Shown here: piece after piece, positions 39,311 through 49,300 of the stretch
Position numbering within the stretch: position 1 is the first letter of the stretch
Layout: each line of letters begins with the position of its first letter
From: Bacilli bacterium
Lineage (GTDB): Bacteria > Bacillota_I > Bacilli_A > ML615J-28 > CAG-698
Reading direction: 5' to 3'
DNA: 64,000 nt
Assembly: GCA_050953085.1 (NCBI GenBank)
Contig: JBMNLX010000005.1
Coordinates: 65,800 to 129,799 of the forward strand
Position numbers and translations under genes: made by a program
The notes under the pieces: generated by a model
Seen by the model: only the letters and a program-made list of their open reading frames with translations
What the model was told of the DNA's origin: nothing
The model's database searches: none

Positions 39311-40654
39311 TTATTCAGCGTCTTCTACGCTGCAAAACATCGAGTACGCGCCTTTGAAGACCAGTCGAATACTGTCGGTTACGCCCTGACGGTTTTTGGC
39401 GACAATCAATTCCGTTTGCACGTTGCGGAATTTTCGCGTCGTATCCTCGTCGCCCTTTGCCGGCTCGCGATGCAAAAACATTACGATATCGGCGTCCTGC
39501 TCGATACTGCCCGACTCGCGCAAGTCGGAAAGAATCGGCCTCTTATTCTCGCGCTGCTCGATGAGACGCGAAAGTTGCGATAATGCCAAAACGGGAACGT
39601 CAAGCTCGCGGGACATCATTTTCAATTGTCGCGAGATTTTAGAGACTTCGTCAACGCGGTTCATCGTCCTTCTTCTCGTCGTGAGCAACTGTAAATAGTC
39701 GATAATAACGAGATCCAGTTTCCCGTCGCGCTTGAGCTTCCGGCATACCGTGACGAGTTCCTCGACGTCGGTCGCGCCCGCTTCGTCCAAATACAGATTA
39801 AAGCGGTCAAGTTTTGTTTTTGCGGCGTAAAGCGAGGCCATTTCCGTTTCGTTAAGTTTGCCGCTCCTAATTTTATTTAGCGTTAAACCCGAATGCGAGC
39901 TGTAAAGCCGCATCAATAATTGGTCGATTCCCATCTCCAAGGAGAAAAAAGCCACGTGGGCATCCATCAGCTCGCAAGCATTTGTGGCGACGTTAAGCGC
40001 GAAAGCCGATTTCCCAATCCCGGGCCGCGCCGCGAGAATTATCAGCTCGCCTTTTTGAAAACCAAAAGTTAATTTATTCAAAGCCTTAAATCCGGTATCT
40101 AACCCGGTCAGGGTGTCGCCCGTTTTTTGCTTGTTTCGCTCAATAATCGATAAAACTTTATCGGTCACGTTGTCGATGCGGATTAAATCGACCGTCTTGC
40201 GCTTGTTAAGCGTCTCGATGATATTGCGCTCGGCGGTATCGATTATTTCTTCAAAAGAAAGTTTGCGGTCGAGAATTTGATTCGACAGTTCCTGCATTTT
40301 GCGCAGCAACTCGCGCTCGACCGATTTTTCTTTAATAATTTGAATATAAGCCGCGACATTCGCGACCGAAGGAATGGCGTCCATAAGCTCGAATAAATAC
40401 TCGCCGCCGCCCGTAGCCTCGTAAAGACCTTTCTGTTTTAAATACTCGATTACGGAACTGACGTCGATTTCTTTTTTGGCTTTGTCCAGGGCGATAATCG
40501 CGTTCATAATATTGATATTTTCCTGAAAATAAAAATCAGTGTAATCGAGTTGGCTGACCACTTCCGACACAAGGCGGTTTTCAATCAGGACCGAACCCAA
40601 CACATAATTTTCCGCTTCTCTGCTGCTGGGAATTTGTCTTTGCATTTCCATCAT
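39311..40654 (-). CDS. dnaB: Replicative DNA helicase (DnaB family; DnaC in B. subtilis nomenclature)
   Basis: The N-terminal domain reads 'REAENYVLGSVL'. Walker A is 'ARPGIGKSAF'. The segment 'SLEM' and a RecA-like core follow. Confidence 0.95.
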   Translation of the reverse strand: MMEMQRQIPSSREAENYVLGSVLIENRLVSEVVSQLDYTDFYFQENINIMNAIIALDKAKKEIDVSSVIEYLKQKGLYEATGGGEYLFELMDAIPSVANVAAYIQIIKEKSVERELLRKMQELSNQILDRKLSFEEIIDTAERNIIETLNKRKTVDLIRIDNVTDKVLSIIERNKQKTGDTLTGLDTGFKALNKLTFGFQKGELIILAARPGIGKSAFALNVATNACELMDAHVAFFSLEMGIDQLLMRLYSSHSGLTLNKIRSGKLNETEMASLYAAKTKLDRFNLYLDEAGATDVEELVTVCRKLKRDGKLDLVIIDYLQLLTTRRRTMNRVDEVSKISRQLKMMSRELDVPVLALSQLSRLIEQRENKRPILSDLRESGSIEQDADIVMFLHREPAKGDEDTTRKFRNVQTELIVAKNRQGVTDSIRLVFKGAYSMFCSVEDAE

Positions 40655-41097
40655 TTCTTCTCCACGACATGAATAGTCATTAGCGCCGTTACTTCTTTAT
40701 GCAGTTGAATGGGGATTTCATATGTCCCCAATGAGTTTATAATTTTATCGGGCAGCATCTTGCGTTTGTCGAGAATAAGATCGTGCTGCGCCTTAAACTC
40801 ATCCGCGATTTGCTTGGTGCTGACGCTGCCGAATAATTTGCCTTCTTTCCCGACGCGAACATGAATGTGAACCGGTTTGCTTTCAATAACGGATTTCAAC
40901 TCCCGCATCTCGTTAAGATGCTTTTCCATCGCCTCTTTCTCTTCCCGTTTTTTCTTTTCCAATTGCTTGATATTATCCACGGTCGCCAAAACGGCTTGAT
41001 CGGTCCTGATCAAGAAATTCGCGTGACCGGCGGGAATATCTATAATGTCGCCTGCTTTCCCTTTCCCCTTAACGTCCTTCGTTAATATGATTTTCAT
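40651..41097 (-). CDS. rplI: Ribosomal protein L9 (translated from the internal SD+ATG of the 811-aa ORF)
   Basis: The sequence 'MKIILTKDVKGKGKAGDIIDIPAGHANFLIRTDQA' is the L9 N-domain. It is preceded by GGAGGT N10 ATG. Confidence 0.8.
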   Translation of the reverse strand: MKIILTKDVKGKGKAGDIIDIPAGHANFLIRTDQAVLATVDNIKQLEKKKREEKEAMEKHLNEMRELKSVIESKPVHIHVRVGKEGKLFGSVSTKQIADEFKAQHDLILDKRKMLPDKIINSLGTYEIPIQLHKEVTALMTIHVVEKK

Positions 41098-43086
41098 CGT
41101 CGTCATACCTCCATCCTCAAGTCTTGAGAGTTTGTCAATCAGCATTTCCTTCGCCTGTTCGACCGTTACGTCTTTTATCTGGGTCGCCGCATTATTGAAA
41201 TGCCCGCCCCCGTTCAGCTGTTCCATGATTACTTGCACGTTTACTTCGTTTAAACTGCGGGCGCTGATTCCGATTTCGTTCTCGTCGATCCGCCCAATGC
41301 AGAAAGAGGCTTTAATATCATGAACGGAAATAATGTTATCGGCAATTTTCGCCAGGAAGGCTCGGGAATAAATCTCGTCGGCGGAACACGCCGCGATCGC
41401 GTATTTGCCGTCGACTATTTCCAAATTATTCAGGATTGACATCCTCTTTACATATTCCCCGAAATTCTCCCGCAAATAACGCTGGGCGCGGGGAATTTCC
41501 GCGCCGATTTTTTGGAGAACCGCGAGCACGTTGAAAGTCCGATACGATGTCCTATACATCAAATTATTGGTGTCGACAAGAATCCCCATCAACATCCAGG
41601 TCGCCTCGATCTCGCTTATTTCAATCTCGTTGGAGATATATTGAAACATTTCCGCAACGAGTTCGACGGTCGAAGACGCGGACGACTGCGAATACAAATA
41701 ATCGTAATTGGAAATCGCGTTATTGTTTCGGCGGTGGTGATCGATTATCGCTATTTTGTTTGCTGATTTATATAGCTTTTCGCTTGTTAACAACGTTTGA
41801 TATTGACAGTCAACAATGACTAACAAAGTATCGTTCGTTATATTATCGACCGCTTTCCGCGGCGCGACGAAATAGTCCAAGATATTGATATGCTCTTTTT
41901 GGATTATGTTATGGATAGCCCTAATCGTTTCGTCAACCGACGACTCGTCAAAAACAATCTTGCTTTCCTTTTTCAAAGCGGCGACTATCTTATGAATGGC
42001 AAGGCAAGACCCGAAAGCGTCGGCGTCCATATCCTTATGCGACATGATTAAAACGTCGCGGGAATGTTTTATCATATCCGCAAGCATTTCCGCCTTCACC
42101 CGAACGAAGATCGGCGATCTTGTTTCAAGCGAAGTCGTTTTCGCCCCGAAATAATGGATCTGATTATCAATGAGGACAACGCCCTGGTTACCGCCGCGAT
42201 TAAGCGCCAACTCCAGCTGCTCTTCCGCCAATTCCACCAATCTGGTAATCCCGTCGTCCTTGCAGGCAATACCCAAAGACGCGGTAATCCGTAGGTCTTC
42301 TTTCTGGCAGTAATTTTGAATATCGTCAAGAACGCTAAATTTATCGTCCATTAATTCCCGCAACTGCGCAAAAGTCATAAACAACAAATACCGCGCTTCG
42401 CTTAAGCCGCGCAGATAGATGTCGTGTTTGTTGCTCCAATCGCTCAACAAACCGATAAGATTACTCATTTGCATGGCCCTTTCCTGCGCGTCAAGGGCCG
42501 TCAAAGCCGTGTCCAAGTTATCAAGGTTTAAAAAACCGACGGCGAGCAATGAGCGCCTGTATTTTTGTTGCAAGTCTTTTAGGTCGGTCTGGTCCAGAAA
42601 ATACAAGATATTATGATCGCTAATGACATTGCATCGATAATGACGGCCATAAATAGTCATTTCAAAATTTTCTTCGCCGTTAATTTTATCAAATAACTCG
42701 GGGTTAATAATCTCGATTTTCCGGTCGACAAGCGGGCTCATGAATATTTCCTTCGCGTAAGCGTTAGCCCATTCGATGACTTTCTCCTCGTTATAAATAA
42801 TAATGCCGATCGGGAGATGATTAAAGGCGTACTCGCCGGCTTTTTTCACCCGGTATGAGATCAAATTCCACAGTTTAAGCCGGTTTTCCAACCAGCGCAA
42901 TCGTTTTATATTCCTGTTCGCCTTGCCTATCATGTAAAAATACGTCAATGACGCGACGATTACGGACAGCGAAATATAGGAAATTGAGACGTGGAAATTT
43001 TCATCTATAAAAGAATAGACAAAGAGAAAGGTTGCCAAGCAAAATAATACTATGATGATTTTTTGAATAGGCAGTTTCATTTTCAT
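41098..43086 (-). CDS. gdpP: Cyclic-di-AMP phosphodiesterase GdpP (2 TM, PAS-like, degenerate GGDEF, DHH, DHHA1); reading frame continues without a stop codon into rplI
   Basis: It has 2 N-terminal TM helices. The motifs 'AIIDHHRR' (DHH) and 'GGGHFNNAATQ' (DHHA1) are present. It ends '...KLSRLEDGG' and then reads 'MTTMKIIL', which is L9, in the same frame. Confidence 0.8.
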
Positions 43087-43214: not shown

Positions 43215-45179
43215 TTAATACAATTTCAAATAAGCGATAATATTACCGCTGAAAGTTCTGAATTGTTGGACGACACACTTGTTGTGGCCGGAAGTGGTGT
43301 TGTGAAAAATGTAGGCGTTACCGCTATCGTCATCGCCGATATACATCATCACGTGGCCCTTAGCGAATATCAAAGCCCCCGGACGCAAATTGTTCTTAAT
43401 GAAATTCTCGTTGATATTCCCGCTTTGCGAATATTGGGGAATCGAGCGTTGTTGTGTGGTGTTGCGCGGCATTTTAAACCCGAAACACGAATAAATGGCG
43501 TTTTGCGTCGACGAGCAATCGCGGCCGGTAATATACGCGTCGCCCCAACTGTAAGGACTGTTCAGCATTTTAAACGCTTGATATAAGACATTCCGGAGCG
43601 TGTACGGCAAATACCCGTCATGCACTTCCTCCTCGTTTTTGGCGACGGCAACTTGGCGAAGAACCAATCCGCCTTCATCATCGCGCCGCGGCATCAGAAC
43701 GACATATTCGTCCTCGTTTTCGGATAGATAAGGGAGCGCCTGACCCATCCTGACACGCTGCGAACCAATCGTGAGAACATTGGCGACAACAACGATAAAT
43801 CTTTCGGCGTCAAGGAACGCTCGCATTTCCTCGCGATTGCACACCCCGATCTTCGCGGCTTCAACCCAGCCGTAATAATTCGTCGCCTGGACAAAAAACC
43901 ACTTTCCATCATTGGTTTCGTGATAGATTACAACTCCTTCTCCAACATTTAAGCCGGTCTCCTGAAAATAGTCCTGCGTCCGGGAATACGCGTAATAGTT
44001 GGTCGGAAAGCTGCGCACCGCGGCGAACTCGGTTATAATCCCGTAACGCGCCAAGACCGTCGCCGGGATCGCGTCCATATTCCGGTATTCTTTTATTTCA
44101 TCTTTTTCAAGCTCTGATAACGCCTTGCCGTCAGGCCGGTAAACGGACCTAGAGTCGATTATTTCATTATAGGCATTTATTTTTTGCTTTACTTCCGCGC
44201 CGGGCGCGGTTTCCGGGGACGCGAGCAAATTGACGACTTTGGTAAGGTGATTGTTATTATAAATATTTTGATTGTATTGGCTAATTTCCGACGGGGTGAA
44301 AATGACCTCGTCCGGGTCATACTCGGGAGAAAGGCGCTCAATCCAATATTCCGGATCCTCTACCGTATAATTTCTCGGCTTGACAACTATTAAGATGCTC
44401 GCGGTCACCGTCTCGTCGGAGGCCAACGCGGCCGTAAGCGCGGTCTCGCCCGCCTTTAAACCCGTAACGGTTAATTCGTCAACTTCCGCGATTCCTGCGA
44501 CGCTGAAAGAAAATATTATTTCCGTTAAATCCGGTATCCCTTCGGTAATCAAAGGTAAAAAGGCGCTCTCACCCGCTTCGATCTCAAGTTTAGACTTAAA
44601 AAAAGAAAGACTCTTTTCCTCCTCGACAAATACCGCGATTTCTGAAAAAACGGAATTGTCAAAGACATAATAGGCCGTTATTATAACCTCGCCGGTTTTC
44701 TGCGCGATAATCTCCTCATCATCGAAAAAAACGATCCCTTCGGCGCTTAAAAGGAAAGCCAGTTCCTCAAATCCGGCGATGTTTTCATACTCAAGCGGAA
44801 GCGGCGCGCGCTCGCCGACCGTCAAAACGATGCTTTCCCTGGTAAACTTCACGCGCGGCCGGCCAATAACCTCGATCGTGACCTTATCAAATATTGTTTC
44901 ATTTTTCACGTAACTTACTGTCAAGACGGTTGTTCCCGGCGCCAGGCCAAGAATCGTGAATCCTTCCGCTCTCGCGATACTTTCGTCGCTAAACGCGTGC
45001 TCGATTTCATCCTTGCCGATGCCGGTTAATTGATAAGCGAGCGTATAGGTCTCGCCCACTTCGATTTGCACGCGAGATTCCGTTATGGCGATTTTTTTCT
45101 CATCGCTTTTGCCTAAGCATCCCGAAAAACATAGCACAATTATAAACAGAATAATAATACGCCTAATTTTTCTTCCCAT
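43215..45179 (-). CDS. Lipoprotein peptidoglycan hydrolase: Ig-like (Big_2) domains, an SH3-like region and a C-terminal NlpC/P60 cysteine peptidase
   Basis: The signal peptide plus lipobox is 'VLCFSGC'. The C-terminal 'SPYSWGDAYITGRDCSSTQNAIYSCFG...GALIF...GHVMMYIG' matches the NlpC/P60 Cys-His catalytic motifs. Confidence 0.8.
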   Translation of the reverse strand: MGRKIRRIIILFIIVLCFSGCLGKSDEKKIAITESRVQIEVGETYTLAYQLTGIGKDEIEHAFSDESIARAEGFTILGLAPGTTVLTVSYVKNETIFDKVTIEVIGRPRVKFTRESIVLTVGERAPLPLEYENIAGFEELAFLLSAEGIVFFDDEEIIAQKTGEVIITAYYVFDNSVFSEIAVFVEEEKSLSFFKSKLEIEAGESAFLPLITEGIPDLTEIIFSFSVAGIAEVDELTVTGLKAGETALTAALASDETVTASILIVVKPRNYTVEDPEYWIERLSPEYDPDEVIFTPSEISQYNQNIYNNNHLTKVVNLLASPETAPGAEVKQKINAYNEIIDSRSVYRPDGKALSELEKDEIKEYRNMDAIPATVLARYGIITEFAAVRSFPTNYYAYSRTQDYFQETGLNVGEGVVIYHETNDGKWFFVQATNYYGWVEAAKIGVCNREEMRAFLDAERFIVVVANVLTIGSQRVRMGQALPYLSENEDEYVVLMPRRDDEGGLVLRQVAVAKNEEEVHDGYLPYTLRNVLYQAFKMLNSPYSWGDAYITGRDCSSTQNAIYSCFGFKMPRNTTQQRSIPQYSQSGNINENFIKNNLRPGALIFAKGHVMMYIGDDDSGNAYIFHNTTSGHNKCVVQQFRTFSGNIIAYLKLY

Positions 45180-46367: not shown

Positions 46368-49300
46368 TTATTCTGGAGCGATTCTCAATTTTTTGAAAGA
46401 ATTCGAGATTAGGAGCATTAACGGGATCACGAAATGAATCAATAATAATGTCACGAGAATCTCCTTTATCATTAACGCGCCTTCGGCTTTGACCGCGGTG
46501 GTAACGCCGTTAAGTTGCCAATAGCCTCCCCGGCTTATCGAAAGCGTCGGTTCAACGTAATCGGTTGCGACGTCACCGTCGGTTATTTTTCTCGCCTTTA
46601 AGGAAGTGCGCTCGCCGTTAATCGCCCAATACCCGCTCGGGTCGATCGTCAATTCAATTTGATCGCCGAGGCCCGCGGGAATATCCGTCTCGATATCATT
46701 GATGGTGAATTTGCCGTCCTTTATCGCCACAACCGGGATTTCATATTCATCCGGGTTGGCGGGCAATTTTACCGCTTTCGCCGTTGTTTCGCGGCCGTTA
46801 AGCCACCAAAAGCCGCCGGAGACATTAAAAACTAATTCGTCGACGCTGCTATGAATGATAGTCGGATGACCGTCGATAACCCAATGATTATCGATAATCG
46901 TGATTTCGGGGCGACGATAACCCTCTGCCGCTGCGGTGTAGGTTATCCCGGGAACCCGGAACGCTTTAACGTTCGTCTTTTGACCGTTAATATGCCAATA
47001 CTTATTGACAACGTCAAGCACGAGACGGTTTTCCTCGAAAGCGTTAATCGACGTTTTCACGCCGTTTAAACACCAGTAATAATCGCCGTTGAGAGTAATA
47101 TTGGGGGTAAGGTAAGTTCCGTTGGACAAATTCTCGACTATCGGCATTTCAATCGCCCGTATCGTCGTCGCCTTGCCGTTGAGAGACCAATTATTGTGTT
47201 CGTTCACTTCCAGGATAATATCCTTGGAAAGCTCGTCGATATTTCTATAATAACTTAGGTCAAGCCGCGCGAATTTAACCGGCAATAAATTAAATCCCAT
47301 CAAAAAGCAACATATGACCATCGCTGCGAAAATGACTTTCCTAACCCAGTTAAACGGGTGGGAGACTTGAAACAAAACGAATAACATGACCGCCGTCGTT
47401 ACCACCGTCGCAATCGTCGTATACACGGCGTTGTTGTGTTGTAACGACTCGAATCCCGGGGTAATGCGAAGGAAACTTAAAATGAGATGCAAAATCACGA
47501 TTGTGAGAGCCCCGGGCAGCGTCGATTTAATAACGTTCGATAAAAACTTACCCTTGACAATCTGCCGGTTGCGTTGCAGCGCCAGATACATCGACGGGAA
47601 CCCGAGCACAAACCATTCGATCATGTATAAATGCTTGGCCGTGAACGGATAAGTTATGCTAATCGGGCCCTTCTGCATTCCCAAGATAATATACATTATC
47701 GTGAGCAATATCGCGAACATCGTCTTAACGAGAAAGAGCGTCGATGTTTTTTGAATATTATTAATGACTCGCCGGCCCTCGATGACGACTTCGGGCATGC
47801 TGGAAAAAGTGGAATTAACCAAAACCAGATGCGACGCGTAACGGACGGCGTCGCTCCCCGAAGCCATGGCGATACTGCAATCAGCTTCCTTGAGCGCCAA
47901 TATGTCGTTAACCCCGTCGCCGGTCATCGCTACGGTTTTATCGTGCTCTTTTAGGGTTTGAACAATAACTCTTTTTTGTTGGGGGCTGACCCGGCCGAAA
48001 ACCGTGTAGTCAAATACGATCTCGCGGACTTCGTCGTCGGTCATCCCCGCCAGGCTGACATATCGTTCGGCGCCTTCGACGCCGACCCGCATCGCGATCT
48101 GCGATACCGTTACGGGGTTGTCTCCCGATATAATCTTGATATCAACATTGTTTTGCTTGAAGAAATCAATCGTGTCGGCCGCGTCTTCGCGGATATGGTC
48201 ATGCAACACAATCAACGCGAGCGGTCTTGCGTTGCGGGGAATATCGTCGCCTTTTACCTGCGCGGTGACATGTCCCAAAACCAACACGCGGCCGCCTTCG
48301 CTCGCGAATCTCTCGACCCTTTCTTTAACGGAGTCATAGTATTGATTCAACACGAATTCCGGCGCCCCGAGATAAAAGGTTCCCTGCTCGCCAAAAACAA
48401 CGCCGCTGAATTTGCGTTTGGACGAAAACGGGATGACCCGCGTCGGTTCCAAAACATTGTTTTTATCAAAGAAACGGATCAAGGCTTCCGAAGTCGGGTT
48501 TGTGTCTTGAAACGCGTTCATCATCGAACCGACTATCTCGCGGATAGTATAGTCGGTATAGTTTTTCAGTTCTATGCAGTCGAACACACGCATCGATCCG
48601 TCGGTTATCGTCCCGGTTTTGTCAAGACACAAAACGTTGGCTCTGGCAAGCATCTCGATGCAATATAATTCCTGGACCAATGTCTTTCGTTTTCCCAGCC
48701 GGATTACGCCGTAAAACAACGAAACGCTGGTGAGAAGGAACAACCCCGCGGGAATCATCGCTAAAACGGAGCTTCCGGCCCTGATTAAGCCGTCTCGGCT
48801 TAATATTGACAGGAAATCCTTCGGCATCCCGTTGGTCGTCGTTATGTATGTTAACACGGCCAAGGGTAAAATAATTATGGAAACAAATTTAATAATAATA
48901 TTCAACGAACGCAATAACTGCGATTTGGGTTTTTGATAAACCCTGGCGTCTTTAGCCAGTTTTTCGATATAATTATCCTTGCCGACTTTATCGATCCTGG
49001 CCACCGCGGCGCCGCTAATAATAAAACTTCCCGAAAACAACTCGTCGCCCACGCTCTTGACAATCGCGTCGGATTCTCCGGTCAAGAGCGATTCATTAAC
49101 CTCGATCGTTCCTTCCAGTATAACGCTATCGGCGCAGATTTGTTTCCCGGGAGTATAAAAAACGATATCGTCAAGCACGACTTCGTCGACGGGAATTTCC
49201 ACTTTATCGCCGTCGCGAATAACGGTGGTCGTCGGCGCCGACATCAAGGATAATTTATCAACCAATAATTTTGCCTTGATCTCCTGGTAAAGCCCGATTA

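Follow-up and report, generated by a model that had tools for sequence, protein, structure and literature searches.

The stretch of DNA analysed here, referred to as the window, comprises 64,000 nucleotides from a Bacilli bacterium (GenBank assembly GCA_050953085.1, contig JBMNLX010000005.1, positions 65,800 to 129,799). On its minus strand, at 46368..49805, it carries a complete open reading frame (ORF) for a P-type ATPase of 1145 amino acids plus stop codon, a pump resembling the CtpE or 'P6' ATPases that contains a large, repeat-built insertion, the predicted ectodomain. A preliminary description made from the sequence alone had already recognized a P-type ATPase. This is borne out by Pfam matches above cut-off to E1-E2_ATPase (PF00122, residues 188-373, 144.6 bits) and to Hydrolase (haloacid dehalogenase, HAD; PF00702, residues 391-642, 79.6 bits), by a match of 223.6 bits to the NCBIfam model TIGR01494 (cut-off 62.3) and by the three motifs that mark membership in the P-type ATPases, all of which are present: TGES in the A domain (residues 242-245), DKTGT at the phosphorylation site (395-399) and the GDGxND hinge (GDGVND, 629-634). 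The protein begins with an N-terminal extension (residues 1-95, 49521..49805, minus strand like all parts of the gene), which is lysine-rich (18% K), poorly conserved and predicted to be disordered and cytoplasmic. AlphaFold2 (AF2) assigns residues 1-87 a predicted local distance difference test score (pLDDT) below 50, and amino acid identity to the two closest relatives is 49-52% in the extension versus 87-92% in the pump core. The length of about 95 residues agrees with the roughly 90 originally estimated. The core follows (residues 96-845, 47271..49520) and comprises helices M1 to M9 as well as the A, P and N domains. M9 (residues 820-842, WVRKVIFAAMVICCFLMGFNLLP, 47280..47348) has its hydropathy peak at 824-842, is modelled by AF2 as a helix at 820-837 and aligns with M9 of repeat-less orthologues, the short forms described below. 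The ectodomain (residues 846-1112, 46470..47270) occupies the loop between M9 and M10, with borders taken from the alignment with the short forms. It consists of 267 residues, is predicted to be all-beta and has a net charge of -11. The hydrophobic C-terminal end noticed in the preliminary description is present (ILVTLLLIHFVIPLMLLI) and is assigned here to M10 (residues 1113-1139, AF2 helices 1113-1124 and 1126-1139), which spans 46371..46469 together with a short basic cytoplasmic tail (…FKKLRIAPE, three K/R).

The full-length AF2 model (pLDDT 67.7) contains exactly ten transmembrane (TM) helices, at residues 137-151, 155-188, 296-324, 337-371, 670-710, 723-743, 754-781, 792-814, 820-837 and 1113-1139, and a beta domain between helices 9 and 10 whose strands span residues 865-1106. 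In a Foldseek comparison, this model matches the ten-helix pumps LMCA1, SERCA and Pma1 over about 860 columns (E ~1e-27). The short orthologues, which have 885-912 residues and no repeats, came from the same homologue search as the long forms and are 56-59% identical to the window protein in the joint alignment A2. In these proteins, a loop of about 15 residues connects M9 (…PFNWFRKI…) to a helix ending in …FKKLRII. This helix, M10, and its KKLRI tail align with the terminal EILVTLLLIHFVIPLMLLISNSFKKLRIAPE of the window protein, and over the M9-M10 region long and short forms differ by about 260 residues (346 versus 86). The positive-inside rule is satisfied, with three to four K/R in the short inner loops and none or one in the short outer loops. 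Given that the A and P/N domains lie in the cytoplasm, M9 must cross the membrane outward and M10 must lead the chain back in, so that the insertion comes to lie outside the cell membrane. Judging from alignment and model, the canonical type II topology, with ten TM helices and both predicted termini in the cytoplasm, is kept.

All seven copies of the repeat motif listed in the preliminary description were found, starting at residues 872, 910, 936, 974, 999, 1059 and 1095 (window 46485-47192). The pattern W.[LIV][ND]G..T occurs seven times in the protein, whereas 20,000 shuffles preserving its composition contained it 0.00185 times on average and never more than once each; eight of the eleven tryptophans of the protein fall in the repeat segment. 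Elsewhere in the six-frame translation of the 64-kb window the motif is absent. An eighth copy, PVVAIKDGKFTINDIETDIPA (residues 1024-1044), had been missed and lacks the tryptophan. Once it is included, the spacing, previously given as an irregular 27-60 residues, alternates (38, 26, 38, 25, 33, 27 and 36 residues), because the repeats form four double units of about 60 residues. These double units (858-925, 926-988, 989-1047 and 1048-1109) align with each other at hhalign probabilities of 99.0-99.7% (E 4e-18 to 5e-26, 57-60 columns). The unit core reads [YF]-W-x-[LIV]-N-G-x-x-T-x-x-K-A and comes in two alternating subtypes, one following h-x-L-x-V and the other Y-x-x-P-x-h-t-h.

In order along the protein, unit 1 (residues 860-884, SKDIILEVNEHNNWSLNGKATTIRA, 47154..47228) contains AF2 strands at 865-867, 872-875 and 878-883. 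Motif and AF2 strands likewise define unit 2 (898-922, YLTPNITLNGDYYWCLNGVKTSINA, 47040..47114), unit 3 (926-948, NRLVLDVVNKYWHINGQKTNVKA, 46962..47030), unit 4 (964-986, RRPEITIIDNHWVIDGHPTIIHS, 46848..46916), unit 5 (989-1011, DELVFNVSGGFWWLNGRETTAKA, 46773..46841) and unit 8 (1086-1107, PTLSISRGGYWQLNGVTTAVKA, 46485..46550). Unit 6, the newly recognized copy (46674..46736), aligns in register with F1033 in place of the tryptophan and has strands at 1026-1029, 1032-1035 and 1038-1043, while unit 7 (1049-1071, QIELTIDPSGYWAINGERTSLKA, 46593..46661) gives the best match both to the DUF4988 model and to the lipoprotein unit profile introduced below. When residues 846-1112 were modelled alone with 22 homologues, AF2 returned an all-beta structure in which every unit is a three-stranded meander (pLDDT 83.6, predicted template modelling score 0.65). 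When this model was searched with Foldseek in PDB and BFVD, no neighbour reached significance (TM-scores <=0.16), and hence there was no support for the beta-solenoid or propeller that had been considered earlier. At the DNA level, Tandem Repeats Finder detected no tandem repeat, and a recent duplication or slippage event was rejected on this ground. Since only a motif core of 17-24 nt recurs in the DNA, the repeats are old and have been maintained at the protein level. Across the 22 ectodomains of alignment A1, which leaves out one 967-residue fragment with a 248-residue ectodomain, length stays within 265-280 residues down to 33% identity, all domains are acidic (net charge -7 to -28), and the conserved columns are nearly all scaffold residues (W, T, A, P, N, G).

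The preliminary description could not match the repeat to a named family. Pfam, HMM searches and profile comparison now connect it with DUF4988 (PF16378). The C-terminal 280 residues of the pump match this model with 22.4 bits (E 1.2e-4; 18.1 bits for the whole protein), covering only model positions 74/75-130. A hidden Markov model (HMM) of the ectodomain alignment, used for an exhaustive search of 1.84 billion representative proteins, returned 448 representatives at E <=1e-3 and 113 at E <=1e-10, with proteins of the DUF4988 type reaching E-values down to 3.5e-53. Traits of the carriers were counted in the best 150 of these 448, i.e., 149 newly returned proteins and the full-length ATPase P0026. 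Among the 149, about eight are ATPase fragments, and about 117 possess a signal or lipobox-type N-terminus; a lipobox occurs in about 100 and collagen-like GXY runs in 102. The lipoproteins carry 2-15 copies of 'TPTIEISEDGYWVINGVKTEYKA' or 'IGENGNWYINGKDTGVKA', mostly directly past the lipid anchor. Seven of ten carriers checked lie above the DUF4988 threshold, several with 37-104 bits on PF16378, and the checked proteins pair the repeat with BspA-type LRR_5 (leucine-rich repeat, LRR), Flg_new, Collagen, Trypsin_2 (trypsin-like) and CarboxypepD_reg domains. Some carriers match NCBIfam models for collagen-like and LRR adhesins, and others are phage tail or tail-fibre proteins. A unit profile derived from 86 lipoprotein repeats aligned with the ectodomain profile at an hhalign probability of 97.2% (E 4e-11). 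On these similarities, the pump repeat is a DUF4988-type repeat, homologous to the units of surface lipoproteins, collagen-like and BspA-type adhesins and phage tail fibres. The repeat is widespread and extracellular, and pumps are not its usual fusion partner; the case in which the find would lose its interest, a domain routinely fused to P-type ATPases, is therefore not what the carriers, mostly lipoproteins, adhesins and phage fibres, present.

DUF4988-type repeats share with the pump repeat the consensus P-x-I-x-I-x-x-x-G-Y-W-x-I-N-G-x-x-T-x-x-K-A and an extracellular location, which for the pump is predicted. In the DUF4988 proteins of Bacteroidota and Firmicutes, they build a stalk that follows a lipid anchor or a collagen segment and bears functional domains at its C-terminal end, whereas the eight units of the pump, in two alternating subtypes, are closed into a loop between two helices. 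Choline-binding repeats (CW_binding_1, PF01473) are likewise short, aromatic-rich units of the beta-hairpin type in surface proteins of Firmicutes, but they differ in consensus and period. The ectodomain gave no match to PF01473 at E <=1 and its unit period alternates between about 26 and about 37 residues, so the earlier statement that this is not a 20-residue choline-binding repeat stands. Weak Pfam and NCBIfam matches to YabP/YqfC (E 0.005-0.07) were dismissed as chance likeness of beta-rich segments. Other approaches were less productive: a word-indexed homologue search with the ectodomain alone yielded a single partial protein, a scan of genome contigs with ectodomain peptides found no relative, alignment A1 proved too variable for search patterns, and comparison of the ectodomain sequence profile with PDB found nothing. 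With the lipoprotein unit profile, a single repeat core was seen at a borderline E of 0.033 in PDB entry 6v8i, chain BN, the upper fibre protein gp68 of phage 80alpha (residues 218-234, 'KMWQIDGKDTDIKAE'). This copy may be the sole solved example of the unit and is treated as a lead only.

The architecture is not restricted to the window. The homologue search returned more than 80 full-length homologues of 1122-1212 residues (56-84% identity, 92-100% query coverage) from many assemblies labelled uncultured 'Bacilli', 'Acholeplasmatales' or 'Acholeplasmataceae', and a Logan contig from an independent assembly encodes the identical 1145-residue protein. When the window protein was compared with its two closest relatives, the rate of nonsynonymous substitution (dN) in the ectodomain was 2.6-3 times that of the core, and the ratio of dN to the synonymous rate (dS) was about 0.07, a value to be read as approximate since dS is saturated among all available relatives. 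By these estimates, purifying selection acts on the ectodomain, and its rate of evolution is about three times that of the pump core.

Long and short forms share the gene order DJ-1 / patatin / ATPase / rpsF / ssb / rpsR / (NlpC-P60) / GdpP-L9 / DnaB, and because they occupy the same syntenic position we regard them as orthologous; the short forms at this locus have 886-906 residues. A neighbour-joining tree built from the pump core unites all long forms in one clade, with the short forms as its sister group. As the wider pump family (79 members) lacks the insertion, the most parsimonious history is a single gain. The module would have been acquired once, in the ancestor of a clade of uncultured gut-type Bacilli or Acholeplasmatales-like bacteria, with sister lineages retaining the pump without it at the same locus. 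A more distant case is a 1273-residue homologue (46% identity) from the uncultured Mollicutes bacterium UMGS268 (L001, 5689-9510), which has an insertion of about 380 residues at the same M9-M10 place. Its repeats are degenerate, with tyrosine for tryptophan (e.g., TPQIEISADYYYVYDGKVTTYQKV and GYYIIDGYYTNFKAIS), its M4 motif is PSGL, and the insertion is weakly similar to the ectodomain profile; a common origin with the ectodomain of the window protein is likely. Another apparently long match, L059, was rejected, as it consists of two adjacent pumps, CopA and a CtpE-like one.

The nearest solved pump is LMCA1, the Ca2+-ATPase of Listeria (E 1e-51). Actinobacterial pumps from Nocardia, Corynebacterium, Gordonia and Streptomyces, found among the matches listed (mostly distant short forms), are 34-37% identical (E ~1e-135 to 1e-145), and the actinobacterial CtpE/P6 members are much nearer to the window protein than any solved P2 or P3 pump. 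The Joint Genome Institute (JGI) names homologues 'cation-transporting ATPase E'. The CtpE family has been proposed as 'P6 ATPases'; the Mycobacterium smegmatis enzyme is reported to take up Ca2+, and CtpE pumps are reported to import this ion when it is scarce (PMC5615198, PMC10654040). For P6 pumps, the criterion put forward is a bulky hydrophobic residue, isoleucine, in place of the aspartate that Ca2+ pumps have in TM6 (PMC10654040). The residue preceding G-x-P in M6 is Leu734 in the window protein and isoleucine, valine or, once, threonine in the other 78 members of the family, never aspartate; the equivalence of this position to SERCA D800 comes from a manual alignment. Lysine K694 in M5 is invariant in all 79 members. 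Similarity scores, JGI names and the M6 signature thus point to membership in the CtpE ('P6') family (TC family 23), with which the pump shares the ten-helix type II topology, the invariant M5 lysine and the hydrophobic M6 residue, mostly isoleucine in that family. CtpE itself has 791 residues and neither an ectodomain nor a disordered N-terminal tail of about 95 residues, both of which are present here.

Taken jointly, anatomy, topology, repeat homology and single origin of the gene for a pump with an ectodomain are correct with a probability that we put at roughly 85%. The protein would be a ten-helix CtpE-family pump with a 267-residue acidic all-beta ectodomain in its last outward-facing loop, between M9 and M10. 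As repeat-less orthologues exist, the ectodomain should be accessory and dispensable for catalysis. Its repeat relatives serve as stalk modules close to the membrane in surface proteins and fibres, which makes a rigid cap or stalk the likeliest form. This structure would be exposed at the surface on the exoplasmic face of M7-M10, would touch the envelope or a partner and might affect pump stability or the access of ions. To our knowledge, P-type ATPases have minimal exoplasmic loops, and the exoplasmic domain found in Na,K-, H,K- and P4-ATPases belongs to a separate subunit. The beta-subunit of Na,K/H,K-ATPases and CDC50 provide a sizeable exoplasmic domain near M7-M10 that lies outside the catalytic core and is dispensable in some family members. 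We tentatively propose a cap or stalk function of the ectodomain as an analogue, not a homologue, of these subunits, while acknowledging that such a role stands at somewhat below even odds. The comparison serves as a working analogy only, because beta-subunits and CDC50 are separate polypeptides with unrelated folds and share neither sequence nor fold similarity with the ectodomain, which is covalently part of its pump. The same insertion logic is seen in PepT1 and PepT2, peptide carriers of mammals, which are described as bearing a beta-rich extracellular domain between TM9 and TM10 that their bacterial homologues lack (PMC4597091). Here, too, the parallel is one of analogy, as the superfamily (MFS/POT) and the immunoglobulin-like fold are unrelated.

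Several observations weigh against parts of this picture. The functional role assigned to the ectodomain is purely inferential, and among the 22 ectodomains no conserved surface patch backs specific binding, the conserved positions being scaffold. With 22 versus 30 bits, the pump stays below the Pfam gathering threshold for DUF4988. Furthermore, its M4 motif is PAGL (48741-48752, residues 352-355) and not the (V/I)PEGL of CtpE; A353 is invariant, and IPAGL occurs in the window protein and in every sequence of alignment A2. For this reason, ion specificity may differ from that of CtpE. Of the 79 members of the wider family, about 55 have PEGL, which goes with S, G, T, A or N at position 730 in M6, whereas 12 of the 14 members with PAGL, PSGL or PAGM have Glu or Asp at this position, as does the window protein (E730, 47616-47618). 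This pattern suggests that an acidic ligand has apparently been relocated from M4 to M6 and that the ion site is rearranged in this clade.

Two other roles for the ectodomain deserve to be weighed against that of a cap or stalk. In the first, it would act as a cation antenna that concentrates the transported ion, e.g., Ca2+, at the exoplasmic entrance or hands it over to the pump, thus taking a direct part in uptake. Such a function would fit the acidity of all 22 domains, their anchoring beside the exoplasmic face and the import of scarce Ca2+ reported for CtpE-family pumps. However, the domain contains no recognisable Ca2+-binding motif and no conserved acidic cluster, and what is conserved is scaffold. 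The lipoprotein repeats are also acidic, so that acidity resembles a family trait rather than an adaptation, the short orthologues manage without the domain, and the ion specificity of the pump, a PAGL variant, may differ from that of CtpE. We consider an antenna unlikely.

The second role would reduce the pump mainly to a membrane anchor that displays a DUF4988-type module at the surface, be it to adhere, to engage envelope glycans or to serve as target or decoy in encounters with phages or host antibodies. This idea draws on the presence of the same repeat in BspA-type LRR adhesins, collagen-like adhesins and phage tail fibres and on the roughly threefold faster evolution of the ectodomain around fixed scaffold residues. 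In addition, antibodies specific to Phocaeicola vulgatus have been found to recognise a DUF4988 protein of this species as their antigen (PMC12078515). On the other hand, the lipoprotein repeats look like stalks bearing functional domains and the pump ectodomain bears nothing, dN/dS is well below 1 (with the reservation of saturated dS) and gives no sign of diversifying selection, and an ATP-driven pump is an odd choice of anchor. Display as the main purpose appears improbable to us.

Going beyond a cap or stalk, the ectodomain might be a built-in regulatory subunit that gates or feeds the exoplasmic ion path or passes a signal from an extracellular ligand or envelope polymer via M9/M10 to the E1-E2 cycle. 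The odds of this are poor. If it were true, the pump would be the first bacterial P-type ATPase with an intrinsic receptor- or beta-subunit-like exoplasmic domain, the DUF4988 repeat would receive its first assigned function, and orthologues that naturally have or lack the domain at the shared locus would offer ready-made controls.

The preliminary description had arrived at a different topology, i.e., a C-terminal repeat domain following a complete ten-helix pump and tethered by an additional, eleventh helix, with the repeats either on the cytoplasmic face or in a flipped arrangement. It is true that the polypeptide ends with the repeats and the final helix, and the statement that the module is held at both ends is retained. 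The remainder does not agree with the data: hydropathy detects only nine helices ahead of the repeats, the AF2 model has ten helices in total and not eleven, and the terminal helix is M10, since it lines up with that helix and the KKLRI tail in orthologues lacking the repeats. The repeats thus follow M9 and face outward in alignment and model. Moreover, the acidic domain is flanked by a basic tail, and the repeat's other best-listed carriers mostly bear the secretion-type N-termini counted above, with several of the remainder matching phage tail families. An eleven-helix protein is accordingly very improbable, and the present assignment corrects what is likely to be an annotation trap in topology prediction. 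Least of all do we credit an artefact, in which the gene of a downstream repeat protein would have been merged with the pump ORF through a lost stop codon, a frameshift or mis-assembly: only the unusual architecture itself speaks for such an event, which is virtually ruled out by recurrence of this architecture in the more than 80 homologues, down to 56% identity and from many assemblies, by the identical protein in the independent Logan assembly, by the position of M10 past the repeats, without which part of the ORF the pump would be incomplete, and by purifying selection on the repeat region.

Some neighbouring genes are of interest in their own right. At 40651-43086 on the minus strand, an ORF of 811 codons encodes a complete GdpP-type phosphodiesterase for cyclic di-AMP (c-di-AMP), with PAS_GdpP, GGDEF_GdpP, DHH and DHHA1 domains, fused in frame to a complete ribosomal protein L9 (L9_N at residues 664-709, L9_C at 726-809). 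The same fusion, with 811 or 812 residues, is called in the relatives L083, L084 and L085/L086, and this conservation shows that it is genuine rather than an error of assembly. Two genes (window 49885-52174, minus strand) separate the pump from the patatin gene (52753-53589), one for a 332-residue protein with MqsA-antitoxin and SocA/Panacea domains (51176-52174) and the other, without a Pfam hit, for a 342-residue protein (49885-50913). Relatives L084 and L081 lack both, and L083 has the 342-residue gene only; this varying content suggests that the gap is a small variable island. A 654-residue protein encoded at 43215-45179 (minus strand) combines an N-terminal signal or lipobox-like sequence with SH3_6 and a C-terminal NlpC/P60 peptidoglycan hydrolase domain and therefore implies a cell wall, despite the 'Acholeplasmatales/Mollicutes' labels of relatives. 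An SSPI spore protein is encoded nearby in relatives.

The literature searched yielded no description of a bacterial pump with a 267-residue ectodomain in the M9-M10 loop. Rather than a new kind of system, the pump represents a novel architecture within an established family, built with a surface repeat that is known but uncharacterised. The orthologues at the same locus, about 57-59% identical overall and with or without the domain, constitute a natural experiment. A new structural context is opened for the CtpE/P6 family, in which both the direction of transport and the ion site continue to be disputed, and the DUF4988 repeat gains a defined, monomeric and membrane-anchored setting that could suit structural work.

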